A stretch of DNA of 10,829 bases from Candidatus Wukongarchaeum yapensis (GTDB lineage: Archaea; Asgardarchaeota; Wukongarchaeia; Wukongarchaeales; Wukongarchaeaceae): positions 1 to 10,829 of the forward strand of contig JAEOSI010000058.1 in the NCBI GenBank assembly GCA_016840425.1. Direction: 5' to 3'. A program made the translations under genes and the position numbers. Positions 5,066 through 9,207 of the stretch are shown here, piece after piece; position 1 is the stretch's first letter; every line of letters starts with the position of its first letter. The notes beneath the pieces were generated by a model. It was not told where the DNA came from, made no database searches, and worked only from the letters and a program-made list of their open reading frames with translations.

Positions 5066-6067
5066 TCAAGGCTCCATGCCGATAAGCTTGCGTATTCTTG
5101 AACCTACTTGCTCGATTAAATGCTCTCTTTCTTCCTTGCGCAAACGATTCAAGTTCTCACCCTGTTTATCTCTATACTCAGAAACCCATTCCTCGGGGAA
5201 TCTACCAGATTGGATGTCGTTTAGAAGTTTTTTCATTTCAGTTCGGGTGGCTTCTGTGATTATTCTTTTCCCCCTGGTTCTTCCACCGTATTCTGCCGTG
5301 TTAGATACGGCTTGCCACATTCCTTCGATGCCTTTCTCGTATATTAGATCCACTATGAGTTTTAACTCATTTAAACACTCAAAATAAGCGACTTCTGGCT
5401 GATATCCCGCTTCTACTAGAGTTTCGAAGCCTGTTTTGATTAGTTCGGTTACACCGCCGCATAAAACCACTTGTTCTCCAAAAAGGTCTGTTTCTACTTC
5501 TTCTTTGAATGTTGTTTCTAGGACGCCTCGCCTTGTAGACCCTATTGCTTTTGAATAGGCTAAAGCTATGTTTTTAGCGTTTCCTGTAGTGTCTTGGGCT
5601 ACTGCTATTAGGGCGGGTATACCTCTGCCTTCTTCATATTCGCTACGGACGGCCCTTCCAGGTCCTTTTGGGGCGATCATTATAATGTCGACGGTTTTTG
5701 GGGGTATTATTTGTTTGAAATGGATGTTGAAAGCGTGGCTGAATCCTAAAGCCGCGCCGTCTTTTAGATTTTTATGTATTTCTGATTCATAGACTGAGGG
5801 TTGTACTTCGTCGGGGATGAGTATTTGGACTATGTTTGCTTTTTTTACAGCTTCGCTTATGGGGTAAACGTTGAAACCTTCTTTTTTTGCTTGGTTCCAG
5901 CTTTTACCTCCTTCTCTTGCGCCTATGATTACTTGGAGGCCTGAATCGCGCATGTTTAAGGCTTGAGCTCTTCCTTGGTTACCGTAACCTATTACTACTA
6001 TCGTTTTTCCGCTAAGAATTTTTAAATCAACGTCTTCATCACGCCAAATTTTCTTTTCTCCAGACAT
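5066..6067 (-). CDS. ilvC: Ketol-acid reductoisomerase (short, class I)
   Basis: VIGYGNQG Rossmann motif, ILIPDE, HAFNIH, IAPKGPG, ETDLFGEQVVLCGG, AYFECLNELKLIVDLI, SNTAEYG. Confidence 0.98.
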   Translation of the reverse strand: MSGEKKIWRDEDVDLKILSGKTIVVIGYGNQGRAQALNMRDSGLQVIIGAREGGKSWNQAKKEGFNVYPISEAVKKANIVQILIPDEVQPSVYESEIHKNLKDGAALGFSHAFNIHFKQIIPPKTVDIIMIAPKGPGRAVRSEYEEGRGIPALIAVAQDTTGNAKNIALAYSKAIGSTRRGVLETTFKEEVETDLFGEQVVLCGGVTELIKTGFETLVEAGYQPEVAYFECLNELKLIVDLIYEKGIEGMWQAVSNTAEYGGRTRGKRIITEATRTEMKKLLNDIQSGRFPEEWVSEYRDKQGENLNRLRKEEREHLIEQVGSRIRKLIGMEP

Positions 6068-6242
6068 AAAGAATCACGCTCACAAAAATAAAATTCCTAA
6101 AAGATAACATAAAAGTAAAAAATACTTTGAAGGTAAATTCTTTGATTTTTCCCTTTTTTATCCTGGTTTTTTCTGTTTATTTGGTTTTTATTTATTTTAA
6201 AAAGGTTTATTTTATGTTTTTTGTGTTCTTTGCTTTTTCGTT

Positions 6243-6809
6243 TTAAACGTAGTCTAGGTAGGGTGTTTCTGGTATTTTTGGCCTTGCTTCAGAGCCTCTT
6301 ACAAGGGCAGTTATACCTGTCCTTGCTACCTCTATGACTCCAAAGGAGTTCATAAGTTTTAAAAACGCGTCTATCTTCTCGCTATCTCCTGTAATCTCGC
6401 AAATCAAGGAAGTAGGGCTTATATCTATTATGTTGCCTCGAAAAATGTTTATGTACTGGATGATCTCGTTTCTCGCGTTAACATCTGGAGATTTCACTTT
6501 TATAAGGGCAAGCTCTCGCACAACGGAGGTTTGAGGTTTTAGCTCTGAAACTTTTAACACTTCAACCTGCTTTCTTAACTGTTTTATCGCCTGTTCTAAC
6601 GTCCTAGAATCGCCTTGAACAACAAAAGTCATTCGGGTATAATTTTCTATTTGGGTGCGAGCGACACTTATCTGGGTTATGTTAAAGTTTCTTCTCCTGA
6701 TTAATCCAGTAACTCTGGCCATGACTCCCGGCCTATCCTCAACTATAAAAGCGATAATGTGTTTTCTTACCTGGTTTTCGTTTCCATCTTTTCTGCTATT
6801 AGAGGTCAT
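6243..6809 (-). CDS. ilvN: Acetohydroxyacid synthase regulatory (small) subunit
   Basis: ACT domain (VEDRPGVMARVTGLIRRRNFNI), IKQLRKQVEVLKV, RELALIKV, EITGDSEKIDAFL, EVARTGITAL. Start overlaps the ilvB stop (ATGA, 6806-6809), with SD AAGGAGGT 7 nt upstream. Confidence 0.96.
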   Translation of the reverse strand: MTSNSRKDGNENQVRKHIIAFIVEDRPGVMARVTGLIRRRNFNITQISVARTQIENYTRMTFVVQGDSRTLEQAIKQLRKQVEVLKVSELKPQTSVVRELALIKVKSPDVNARNEIIQYINIFRGNIIDISPTSLICEITGDSEKIDAFLKLMNSFGVIEVARTGITALVRGSEARPKIPETPYLDYV

Positions 6810-8578
6810 TTTTTATACCTCCTTGGCCATGGTTCGCATGGGATAGGTTGATCTGTGCTTCCTCCTGCAGGAACCATGGGAAAAACGTTTTCATTCTTAT
6901 CAACTGCAATGTCGATAACAACAGTGTGATCTGCTTTCTTTGCCTCTCTAAGCGCTGGTCCTATTTCGCTCGGGTTTTCAATTCTTATGCCTTCTAAGCC
7001 GTAAGCTTCTGTAATTTTAACAAAATCTGGCACGGTTCCAAGATCTGTTTCCACGAATCTTTTCTCGAAAAACAAGCTCTGCCACTGTCTGACCATTCCA
7101 AGAGATCTGTCATCAAGGATTATAACTGTTACGGGTATGTTTTCCACAAAACTTGTAGCAAGGTCTTGATGCGTCATCAAGAAGGAACCATCCCCATCAA
7201 CGTCGACGACCCATGAGTCGGGTTTAGCCACTTTTGCACCAAGGGATGCTGGAAAACCGAACCCCATAGTGCCTAGTCCCCCGCTAGAAATGAACCTTCT
7301 TGGCTTTCTAATACGTAGATGATGCGCTGCCCACATCTGATTCCTTCCGACACCTGTTACGACGATGCTGTCGTCGTCAAGGACTTTTTGTAGTTCTTTC
7401 ATTATGTATTGGGGTTTTATCGGTGTTACTGGTTCGTACTCTTCCAAGCAGTCACATGCTTCCCGCATCTCTTTAATCCTTTTTTGCCAAGCAGTCTTTT
7501 TATCACTGTTGGAGCTTGAAGAAGTGATAAGGGTTTTTAATCCTTCAATTAATTGTCTCAACACTGTTTTTGCATCACCCACTATAGGGTAATCCACTAA
7601 TACATTTTTACTTATTTCAGCGCTATCTATATCGATATGGATTATTTTCGACTCGGTAAGAAATGTTGTAAGGTCTGCTGTAACCCTGTCATCAAACCGC
7701 ATACCCACCGCTAAAATAACGTCTGCTTTGTTTATATTTAAGTTGGCACACATTTTCCCATGCATGCCCACCATTCCAAGGCAGTAAGGATGGTCTTCAG
7801 GAATTGTTCCTTTTCCCATTAAAGTTGTTACGACGGGAATGCCGAGCATTTCCACTAGCTCTATTAATTCAGGGCTTGCATTAGAAGCGGTAACTCCCCC
7901 TCCGGCTATTATTAAAGGTCTTTCTGCTTCAAGCAAAGCCTTGGCCGCCCTTTTTATTTGTAAGGGATGGCCTTTAATATTGGGATTATAACCGGCGATC
8001 TCTAATTCTCCTTCATAAAAATAGACTTCATCCTCGCCTACCTGTATATCTTTTGGCAGATCCACCAAGACAGGGCCAGGTCTTCCCGTTCTGGCTAACT
8101 GAAAAGCCATCTTAATAATTAGGGGTATATCCTTAACGCGACGGATCTGAAAGCTACTTTTAACTATTGGCATCGTGATGCCTATTATGTCTGCTTCTTG
8201 AAAGGCATCACCTCCTATAAGAGAAGTGGCGACTTGGCCGGTTAAAGCGACTACTGAAGAGCTATCCATCCACGCGTCTGCGATACCTGTTACAAGGTTG
8301 GTGGCTCCTGGACCTGATGTTGCCATGCAAACGCCTACTTCTCCGCTTGCCCGCGCATAACCTTCGGCTGCGTGGGCTGCGACTTGTTCGTGTCGACAGA
8401 GTATGTTGTTTAATTCGCCCGCTTTTTCATATTCTTGAAGTGCATCGTAAAGGATCATTATAGCTCCGCCAGTTATGCCAAAGATGTTTTTTACTTTTTC
8501 CCGTTTAAGGCTTTCAGCTATGACTTTTGCACCTTTCATAAATGGCACTTTTTTATCACATCCTGTTGTTTCTGTCAT
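6806..8578 (-). CDS. ilvB: Acetohydroxyacid (acetolactate) synthase catalytic subunit
   Basis: RHEQVAAHAAEGYAR, ATSGPGATNLVTG, GQV, GRPGPVLVDLPKD, GMRFDDRVT, SGGLGTMGFG, ThDP motif GDGSFLM, LGMVRQWQ, ENVFPMVPAG. Confidence 0.98.
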   Translation of the reverse strand: MTETTGCDKKVPFMKGAKVIAESLKREKVKNIFGITGGAIMILYDALQEYEKAGELNNILCRHEQVAAHAAEGYARASGEVGVCMATSGPGATNLVTGIADAWMDSSSVVALTGQVATSLIGGDAFQEADIIGITMPIVKSSFQIRRVKDIPLIIKMAFQLARTGRPGPVLVDLPKDIQVGEDEVYFYEGELEIAGYNPNIKGHPLQIKRAAKALLEAERPLIIAGGGVTASNASPELIELVEMLGIPVVTTLMGKGTIPEDHPYCLGMVGMHGKMCANLNINKADVILAVGMRFDDRVTADLTTFLTESKIIHIDIDSAEISKNVLVDYPIVGDAKTVLRQLIEGLKTLITSSSSNSDKKTAWQKRIKEMREACDCLEEYEPVTPIKPQYIMKELQKVLDDDSIVVTGVGRNQMWAAHHLRIRKPRRFISSGGLGTMGFGFPASLGAKVAKPDSWVVDVDGDGSFLMTHQDLATSFVENIPVTVIILDDRSLGMVRQWQSLFFEKRFVETDLGTVPDFVKITEAYGLEGIRIENPSEIGPALREAKKADHTVVIDIAVDKNENVFPMVPAGGSTDQPIPCEPWPRRYKK

Positions 8579-8626: not shown

Positions 8627-8956
8627 TTATTTTAGAGTTATCAAGTTGATTATAAGGGGATTTTTATCATTTTTGGATAACATTTTTTGCTCTATTTTTT
8701 CAGTTTTTAGGCTTTCATAAACGATGATGCCTAGCGCGGTTAAACGAACCCTTATGCCTTTATTATTCTTGTCTCCTGCGATGATCAAGCCTGCTTTTTT
8801 TAATATTTTTAGATTCCAGCGAACAGTTGATAAAGGCATGTTAAACTCTGAGGAAAGTTTCCTTATAAGACGGCTGAGAGTATTATTTTCAACATTTTTT
8901 TCAGCAACAGCGAGCAAAAGAGAGCGTTGTTTCTTGGTTAGTAGATTGTTCACCAA
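8627..8956 (-). CDS. Uncharacterised winged helix-turn-helix protein, putative transcriptional regulator; true start uncertain
   Basis: LTKKQRSLLLAV (helix 1), LSRLIRKLSSEFNMPLSTVRWNLKILKKAGLI (HTH), wing ending VRLTALG, a typical archaeal wHTH pattern. TTG/GTG start at 8956/8953 has no SD; the frame is open up to 9046. Confidence 0.8.
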   Translation of the reverse strand: MVNNLLTKKQRSLLLAVAEKNVENNTLSRLIRKLSSEFNMPLSTVRWNLKILKKAGLIIAGDKNNKGIRVRLTALGIIVYESLKTEKIEQKMLSKNDKNPLIINLITLK

Positions 8957-9076
8957 AAGCAGTATGCATTCGCTTAATTCACATTCGGAACACGGACTAA
9001 CCGTGTACCTGGCTATCCCTCCGTTCCTGAAGAGAACGATACCTCCTCAAAATCTTTCACTCCATAAAATTTTGAA
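8957..9076 (-). other. GC-enriched, hairpin-forming 5' leader (or unannotated N-terminal coding extension) of the wHTH gene
   Basis: Stems found by eye on the - strand: 9076-9046 (11 bp including G-U), 9043-9011 (GG-TATC-GTTC / GAAC-GATA-CC), 9009-8987 (ACACGG-TTAGT-CCGTGT core), weak 8975-8957. Much more GC-rich than flanking intergenic DNA. Confidence 0.45.
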
Positions 9077-9207
9077 CCCGTAAGAAAGGGAAAAGAAAAC
9101 TATTAAGAGTTTTTGCAAGAAGTTCTTTACACTTAAGTTTTAAATTCTTTTCGCTTTTTTTCTGATCGAAAATTTTTTAATTAATAAGTCGGAAGACGAG
9201 GTTACGT

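Follow-up and report, generated by a model that had tools for sequence, protein, structure and literature searches.

The question raised by this locus is where the coding region of a wHTH regulator begins and how it comes to be translated. The window analysed here, 10,829 nt in all, is an entire 10.8-kb contig from a 2.16-Mb MAG (genome label G000) of an Asgard archaeon (Hodarchaeota), and the wHTH ORF as annotated comprises 109 codons (8627–8956, minus strand) starting at TTG. Translation of the minus strand from 8627 to 9100 shows that the frame is open from the TGA at 9049–9047 and runs for 30 codons with no ATG, GTG or TTG up to the annotated TTG 8956–8954, in the order TGA, GGIVLFRNGGIARYTVSPCSECELSECILL, L (TTG), V (GTG 8953–8951) and NNLLTKKQ. 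This string is identical to the one quoted in a preliminary description of the DNA, which had noted the open upstream frame and the missing standard start. The two SD-like motifs it had placed there, GAGGAGGT at 9048–9041 and GGAGGG at 9022–9017, are both present, and the sequence preceding the annotated TTG, GAATGCATACTGCTT, contains no SD-like run, also as described.

The wHTH gene is followed directly on its 3′ side, on the same strand, by ilvB, ilvN and ilvC, and a glutamate-synthase-like gene lies upstream on the opposite strand, all as judged by Pfam matches (Table 1). The same wHTH-ilv synteny is found in five related loci (L032, L037 and L034–L036). The promoter block AAAGCGAAAAGnATTTAAAACTTAA is invariant across three species in which the flanking DNA diverges, and it is the probable promoter of a wHTH-ilvBNC transcript. 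From the usual archaeal distance between TATA box and transcription start, transcription is predicted to begin near G 9116, so that the predicted mRNA would carry a leader of about 65 nt and would not be leaderless. No known RNA family or tRNA was found in the window (Rfam, E ≤ 1; ARAGORN), Rfam gave no match in the leaders of 11 homologous loci, and no intergenic palindromes above chance were detected. At the other end of the gene, the G000 regulator (C-terminus at window 8627–8680, minus strand) is about 16–25 residues shorter than its relatives in L002, L031 and L037; their tails (..LKKKPAQ.GLKYGFT.., up to ..WQRQKANIKQR) reach the region just 5′ of ilvB, and in G000 an earlier stop follows a diverged PLIINLITLK. 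The ilvB gene probably starts at GTG 8548–8546 rather than at the first ATG (8578); the GTG is preceded by GGATGTGAT plus 6 nt, and this SD–GTG pair is kept in relatives while the upstream ATG region is not.

The best match of the regulator to a named family is NCBIfam NF053753 (TK0271_fam; E 2.7e-8, 33.9 bits, residues 22–106), which falls below the TK0271/Tar cut-off of 130 bits, and the Pfam matches to HTH_20, HTH_24 and HTH_5 are all under their own cut-offs. On sequence similarity the regulator is thus a distant relative of the Tar/TK0271 activators of amino-acid operons. In the f18 locus L003 an HMGL-like/LeuA-like (isopropylmalate or homocitrate synthase) gene lies 3′ of the wHTH homolog, and in other families the neighbours of the homolog are peptidases or KaiC-like ATPases, so the link to amino-acid biosynthesis is not universal.

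Table 1. Positions of the regulator gene, its leader elements and the neighbouring ilv genes in the window.
Feature	Position	Strand	Remarks
ilvB-ilvN-ilvC block	5066–8578	-	Pfam matches
ilvC	5066–6067	-	Pfam match
ilvN	6243–6809	-	Pfam match
ilvB	about 6806–8548/8578	-	Pfam match
wHTH regulator ORF as proposed	8627–9016	-	129 codons from ATA; stop TAA 8629–8627
Annotated TTG 8956–8954 and adjoining GTG 8953–8951	8951–8956	-	TTA GTT in G001, TTA GTA in L031/L032
Cys codons TGT 8992–8990, TGT 8983–8981, TGC 8968–8966 (Cx2Cx4C)	8966–8992	-	first and third kept in three species
Hairpin ACACGG-TTAGT-CCGTGT	8990–9006	-	uORF stop TAG in loop; six pairs kept in two species
uORF	8997–9050	-	TTG 9050–9048, 17 sense codons M/L-RRYRSLQERRDSQVHG, stop TAG 8999–8997; kept in three species
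AGG, candidate start	9008–9010	-	7 nt after GGAGG; kept in three species, AAA in L034–L036 and other families
ATA, candidate first wHTH codon	9014–9016	-	ATC in L031/L032; aligned codon TTG in f18, ATC in f16 copy 2
GGAGGG (SD3)	9017–9022	-	directly abuts candidate start codon ATA
Pyrimidine arm CTCTTC (anti-SD-like)	9029–9034	-	can pair with SD2 or GGAGGG
SD2, SD-like GAGGAGGT	9041–9048	-	reads Arg-Arg in uORF frame; invariant in three species
TGA closing wHTH frame upstream	9047–9049	-	overlaps uORF start as T-TGA; TGA in all relatives
SD1 GGAGTGAA	9056–9063	-	GGAGTGAT in relatives, GAGGTGAT in sister lineage L034–L036
BRE-like GCGAAAAG 9154–9147 and TATA-like ATTTAAAA 9145–9138	9138–9154	-	invariant block, diverged flanks

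Single-protein scans of metagenome and genome contigs gave no match, and the related loci were found when the scans were repeated with alignments. Three species-level sequences were available for comparison, namely G000, G001 (loci L002 and L037) and L031/L032 (two JGI metagenomes, identical here), and in all three the frame is open from the same TGA. The TTG-GTG pair occurs only in G000, the codons of the other two species at these positions being synonymous. The G001 frame extends over 164 codons without ATG or GTG and has its first TTG at codon 122; the L031/L032 frame likewise has no canonical start until codon 122, here an ATG, and neither species has a canonical start before the DNA-binding domain. 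Over codons 32–125 dN/dS is 0.10–0.16, with 0.16 between the two start-less species, and the genes are therefore translated. Over codons 17–31 it is 0.06–0.09 with a dS of 0.67–0.94, equal to that of the gene body. In comparisons involving G000 it is about 0.9–1.0 over codons 1–16, and within codons 11–16 the substitution pattern fails to separate the regulator frame from the -1 frame.

Homologs from other Asgard families align from query residue 22–28 and carry 40–65 residues before the LTxKQ motif, and the segment ELSECILLLV aligns with a helix present in all of them. The coding region extends upstream of the annotated TTG; because the upstream codons are coding, the relatives are start-less and the homologs carry these additional residues, the annotated TTG is not the N-terminus. 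TTG 8956 and GTG 8953 are most likely internal Leu-Val codons and possibly a secondary start. A sister lineage (L034–L036), whose wHTH protein is about 55% identical and is followed directly by an ilvB that is 54–58% identical, has 62 codons before LTxKQ, and no canonical in-frame start occurs among them until codon 38. The proposal that the protein extends upstream and is expressed by a non-canonical route is thus borne out by start-less sister genes under purifying selection. The accompanying suggestion of a mutated start fails, since two diverged lineages share this state. Errors at the ATC, GTT or CTC codons had also been considered; three independent assemblies agree, and this agreement, with the dN/dS of 0.10–0.16, disposes of both sequencing error and a pseudogene. 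Read-through or recoding of TGA 9049–9047 was rejected as well, the frame upstream of it being poorly conserved with indels among relatives.

The preliminary description had further envisaged a Cys-rich metal- or redox-sensing N-terminus, and had asked whether homologs keep the Cys motif. The homologs do share the additional residues and the ELSECILLLV alignment, so the refuting case it had named, with homologs that begin at the VNNLL-equivalent position, does not arise, but CxxCxxxxC is not kept. All three genus-level sequences have C19 and C27, C22 (the second codon) is Asn (AAC) in G001, the sister lineage L034–L036 has ESASTDES with no Cys at this position, and most families have no Cys there, so the sensor proposal is not upheld. 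In the sequences compared the Cx2Cx4C motif is genus-specific and incomplete, and is weak evidence for a sensor. Assignment to the ArsR/SmtB metalloregulators was likewise rejected (HTH_5 17 bits against a cut-off of 22; Cys not kept beyond the genus).

As to the codon at which the extended frame begins, GGAGG lies 7–10 nt and GTGAT about 5 nt upstream of start codons genome-wide, and by this spacing the SD-like GAGGAGGT and GGAGGG point to CTC 9034 and AGG 9010, respectively. The preliminary description had arrived at the same two codons, and its arithmetic is right at +7. However, the CTC is not conserved, being CCC in relatives, and the AGG holds within the genus but not elsewhere, where AAA takes its place. 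Non-canonical starts are no general habit of this genome, since only eight of 273 strong SD sites that precede a long open frame and have a short open stretch upstream lack a canonical start within 60 nt downstream, the present locus being among the eight. Many genes of the genome have no strong SD at all. Separately, a strong SD (AAAGGAGGT) near position 10677 of contig C242 (plus strand) precedes an open frame of 273 codons in which no canonical start occurs until 65 nt downstream, and this may be a second gene with an odd or misplaced start.

The first codon of the regulator frame is most likely ATA 9016–9014, which on alignment would make AUA, or AUC in L031/L032, the initiation codon. A module in which GGAGG[GA] is followed at once by ATA, ATC or TTG is common to both Hodarchaeota lineages, family f18 and the second copy of f16, with ATA (ATC in L031) in Hodarchaeota, TTG in f18 and ATC in f16 copy 2. 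Codon-wise reading of the alignments also matches this ATA to the GTG of f6, and in L034 the sequence ITKSTPYESAS is similar to V-TTKSSHGESAFSS, with which the f6 homologs begin as called. Codon periodicity in the 0 frame of f18 begins near the TTG after GGAGG[GA]. The main-start candidates differ by family, with TTG after GGAGGG in f18 and, as read here, a GTG within GGTGA in others; Hodarchaeota have only ATA or ATC to offer. In the second f16 paralog L122 (G040:C6, about 395880–395940) a TAG stands where L123 and L124 have TTG, and an ATC after GGAGGA is the only start-like codon before the conserved GGIAKST; this is an independent case of a missing canonical start.

A canonical start is nevertheless present in the leader, in the -1 frame relative to the regulator. 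It is an SD-led TTG at 9050–9048, one base upstream of the TGA, which the preliminary description did not report, and it opens an upstream overlapping ORF (uORF) encoding an Arg-rich peptide of 17 residues, MRRYRSLQERRDSQVHG. The distance from SD1 to the -1-frame start codon is 5 nt in G000, 4 nt in the relatives and 3 nt in L034–L036. In the latter, GAGGTGAT and 3 nt are followed by an ATG that overlaps the TGA as ATGA, and the peptide begins MRRDRALQRRDNQ. Between L034–L036 and the genus the uORFs differ by synonymous changes of Arg (CGT/AGA, CGG/AGG), Leu (CTT/CTC) and Gln (CAG/CAA) codons. Within the overlap pN/pS is 0.27–0.38 in the -1 frame, whereas it is 0.57–0.66 in the regulator frame, and in L034–L036 synonymous changes in the regulator frame are located 5′ of the uORF stop.

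With an HMM of the wHTH domain the family was found in 135 of 400 Asgard genomes. A further 100 loci were added, 137 were anchored on LTxKQ, and 136 of these were scored for the best SD-led ATG, GTG or TTG within 300 nt upstream. The best SD-led start lies in the -1 frame in 124 of the 136 loci, from more than 10 GTDB families, the genomes being related and not independent. The other 12 divide into six in the 0 frame, one in the +1 frame and five without an SD-led start, and most of these exceptions, G000 included, have the same uORF behind an SD with a mismatch. Across the family the uORFs range from 4 to 42 codons and group into about 34 clusters by sequence; every one of them overlaps the regulator frame in its open part, and the -1 relation is kept through many indels. 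The simplest forms consist of an upstream start 4–10 nt before a GTG embedded in GGTGA. The conserved uORF probably controls translation of the regulator. Scans of codon phase and of codon and amino-acid variability in three large leader clusters gave no clean frame signal inside the overlap, which fits dual constraint or constraint at the RNA level.

The uORFs of family f6 (L038–L097 and others; about 60–190 nt upstream of the LTxKQ codon) encode a conserved peptide of 30–39 residues with recurrent His and Cys positions (AH-x-C ... G-E-C ... G-E-C-VLQ), which may itself act as a small protein or, as a nascent peptide, in regulation. Covariation (ATGGG/CCCAT against GTGGG/CCCAC) is seen in the helix holding the f6 uORF start codon. 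The peptide, MG..AH[QR][CY]RV..G[DE][CY][EQ]I..RG[EG]CVLQ-stop, is conserved to its own stop, as fits a separately translated ORF and not a fused one.

Pairing within the leader RNA was considered next to these coding features. In place of the CTCTTC arm the relatives have CCCTTA and the sister lineage has CCCTCC, with changes from U·G to C-G against the invariant GGAGGG. In the minimum-energy fold of G000 the arm pairs with SD2 (-11.5 kcal/mol, z = -2.1) and in that of L034 the CU-rich arm pairs with the upstream GGAGG (-11.8 kcal/mol, z about -2), while in the folds of L031 and f18 it pairs instead with the GGAGGG adjoining the start. This last pairing leaves about 7–9 unpaired nucleotides between the upstream SD-like motif and the start. 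The SD of phage T4 gene 38 is bridged by a hairpin, and in a similar manner pairing of the arm with GGAGGG would bring the upstream SD-like motif near the start, the folds differing among species. The leader hairpins on which this idea depends are small and statistically weak, with z values from +0.2 to -2.5. In the hairpin around the uORF stop one pair is broken in G001 by a synonymous change, and there is no covariation. A strongly structured leader was rejected, because shuffled sequences fold as well as the 159-nt G000 leader (z = -0.9) and the alignment fold is almost without covariation. A BHB-type mRNA intron, for which a 16-nt element around the TAG hairpin was considered, was also discarded: a systematic scan found no conserved BHB, and none of 3n+1 length with real helices that would join the frames is conserved across the three species.

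The explanation that we tentatively prefer, and regard as a good possibility short of a probable one, combines an overlapping regulatory uORF with weak AUA/AUC initiation of the regulator frame. A Tar/TK0271-like regulator at the head of ilvBNC would stand behind a conserved translational-control leader in which SD1 and TTG 9050–9048 form the sole well-placed RBS and open the 17-codon ORF across the beginning of the regulator frame. The latter would begin at AUA 9016–9014 (AUC in one sister species), right after GGAGGG. Initiation at AUA would be weak, its level being set by the uORF, through ribosome occupancy or through occlusion and unwinding, and also by the alternative pairings of the CU-rich arm with the two GGAGG motifs, and little regulator would be made, its translation being conditional. 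We infer the regulatory roles of the uORF and of the hairpins from sequence comparison. Against this explanation, the AUA/AUC codon abuts GGAGGG and has no normally spaced SD, the genome optimum being 7–10 nt; no other gene of the G000 genome has been shown to use AUA; and the -1 relation kept through indels is also predicted by a frameshift model. Archaeal aIF1 discriminates against non-AUG codons (PMC6237735). In Haloferax volcanii about 30% of the alternative initiation sites mapped with harringtonine are near-cognate codons (PMC7261190), and in S. meliloti closely spaced pairs of upstream and main RBS repress by occlusion, an ATC-started uORF also having been described there (PMC13285730).

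The frameshift model departs from the same TTG 9050–9048. About 11–17 codons would be translated in the -1 frame before a programmed +1 shift into the regulator frame, at (C/A)GG-AGG-G followed by AUA or further on, before TAG 8999–8997, and the predicted trans-frame product would carry an Arg-rich N-terminal arm fused to the wHTH domain. The locus has the arrangement of a frameshift-type gene, with two overlapping frames and the sole canonical SD-led start in the -1 frame. The model uses the sole canonical, well-spaced RBS, which is conserved in all lineages, and explains the loss of start codons from the regulator frame in two lineages. The lower pN/pS of the overlap in the -1 frame (0.27–0.38 against 0.57–0.66), the synonymous Arg, Leu and Gln changes between lineages and the -1 relation in 124 of 136 loci despite many indels all speak for it, as does the finding that in several families regulator-frame coding becomes clear only close to where the uORF ends. 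Bacterial frameshifting is typically stimulated by internal SD-like motifs, and re-pairing from AGG to GGG is possible; tandem AGG-AGG was reportedly found to be frameshift-prone in E. coli (Spanjaard and van Duin, 1988). However, Arg is encoded here by AGG in 27% of cases and Ile by ATA in 45%, and the next in-frame codon, GAT, is ordinary, so the tandem AGG is not hungry, and slippage at hungry AGG codons was rejected on this usage. A prfB-like shifty stop was rejected as well, as there is no conserved combination of slippery codon and poor-context stop at the uORF end: the stop, the codon preceding it and the base after it all vary within and between clusters, with no shifty stop or P-site codon, and the SD-like motifs are off the 3-nt prfB spacing. 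The f6 peptides conserved to their own stop, as if separate products, and the regulator-frame synonymous changes that precede the uORF stop in L034–L036 also count against a fusion, and only one frameshift has been demonstrated in Archaea, a -1 shift, with no cellular +1 event established (PMC8211752). We consider a +1 frameshift at this locus, the main rival of the preferred explanation, unlikely. Its extension to the family, by which the whole Asgard Tar-like family would be made by a conserved +1 frameshift and the Hodarchaeota would have let a redundant in-frame start decay, is likewise doubtful on the sequences compared.

The remaining alternatives keep initiation in the regulator frame at another codon. 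That TTG 8956/GTG 8953 is the working start in G000, the frame upstream being a recent relic or a minor isoform, appears improbable. G000 does have TTG-GTG at 8956–8951, its genome has many genes without a strong SD, and two database proteins of related organisms, P0002 and P0003, have their initial M at the position of GTG 8953 (codon 32); this M is probably a real ATG, because the database prints V for GTG starts (P0001, P0006). But the strong purifying selection on codons 17–31 was seen in comparisons that include G000, ELSECILLLV aligns with the helix found in all homologs, the two sister species have TTA-GTT or TTA-GTA, and the site has no SD and lies about 160 nt inside the predicted transcript. 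A regulator-frame start at AGG 9010–9008 or ACG 9004–9002, positioned by GGAGGG, is very improbable. The three genus-level sequences all have both codons, coding in the regulator frame can be recognised from codon 17 on, and the 7-nt distance of the AGG from GGAGG is within the genome optimum. The sister lineage and other families, on the other hand, have AAA at the AGG codon, AGG is among the poorest near-cognates by virtue of its middle-position mismatch, and the 13 nt that separate the ACG from GGAGG are a spacing rarely used in the G000 genome.

Whichever codon is used, the Hodarchaeota regulator is, by its sequence, a gene without a canonical start behind a conserved leader that contains an out-of-frame SD-led uORF and to which we ascribe translational control. 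If the preferred reading holds, annotation pipelines truncate or miss the regulator in Hodarchaeota, where proteins have been called from codon 32 or a later codon, or from within the wHTH domain. It would mean that a phylum-wide regulator family is preceded by a conserved leader for translational control for which no archaeal counterpart has been described, one that combines an out-of-frame SD-led uORF with recurring SD-like and anti-SD-like motifs and with a main start that is either weak or non-canonical, and that translation status is linked to a regulator of amino-acid biosynthesis, following the logic of GCN4/ATF4 and of bacterial leader peptides. The locus offers a testable case of non-AUG initiation or +1 recoding in Asgard archaea. 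Were the family-wide frameshift true, Archaea would have their first case of a cellular +1 frameshift, in the closest known relatives of eukaryotes, where it would control a regulator of an amino-acid pathway.

Several known systems resemble parts of this arrangement. The bacterial gene for IF3, infC, is autoregulated and has an AUU start codon, and as in infC a conserved AUH in place of AUG would keep expression low and dependent on initiation fidelity; infC, however, has a normally spaced SD and no overlapping uORF, and here the product is a transcription factor and not an initiation factor. Eukaryotic ATF4 and GCN4 are controlled by uORFs through scanning and eIF2. What they have in common with this locus is a transcription factor of an amino-acid pathway and an out-of-frame uORF that overlaps its start, an analogy only, since initiation here is SD-directed. 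In the +1 programmed frameshifts of prfB (RF2) and antizyme a short upstream frame with a real start precedes a main frame that is shifted by +1, and SD-like motifs are likewise found internally, but the present locus has no conserved slippery codon with a poor stop, no hungry codon and the wrong SD spacing. Tar (TK0271) of Thermococcus kodakarensis activates aromatic amino-acid operons from a gene within the aro operon, and like the present regulator it is a small winged-helix protein whose gene heads an amino-acid biosynthesis operon, aro in the case of Tar and ilvBNC here (PMC6737238). Term searches of that paper found no unusual start or upstream ORF for Tar (PMC6737238), unlike the situation here, and a scan of the window for the Tar operator TGGACA-N8-TGTCCA gave 2 matches at 3 mismatches against 3.0 expected, none of them in a promoter. 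Similar in layout are lacR of S. meliloti and other bacterial regulator genes, in which an SD-led out-of-frame upstream start lies near or overlaps the start of a transcription factor, and the minimal Asgard forms, with two starts 4–10 nt apart, compare directly with these uRBS (PMC13285730). The leader described here differs from them in being archaeal and conserved across a phylum-level protein family, and in Hodarchaeota 34 nt separate the two starts, of which the main one is non-canonical. As a form of translational control, the leader proposed here is notable for being archaeal, phylum-wide and open to direct test.
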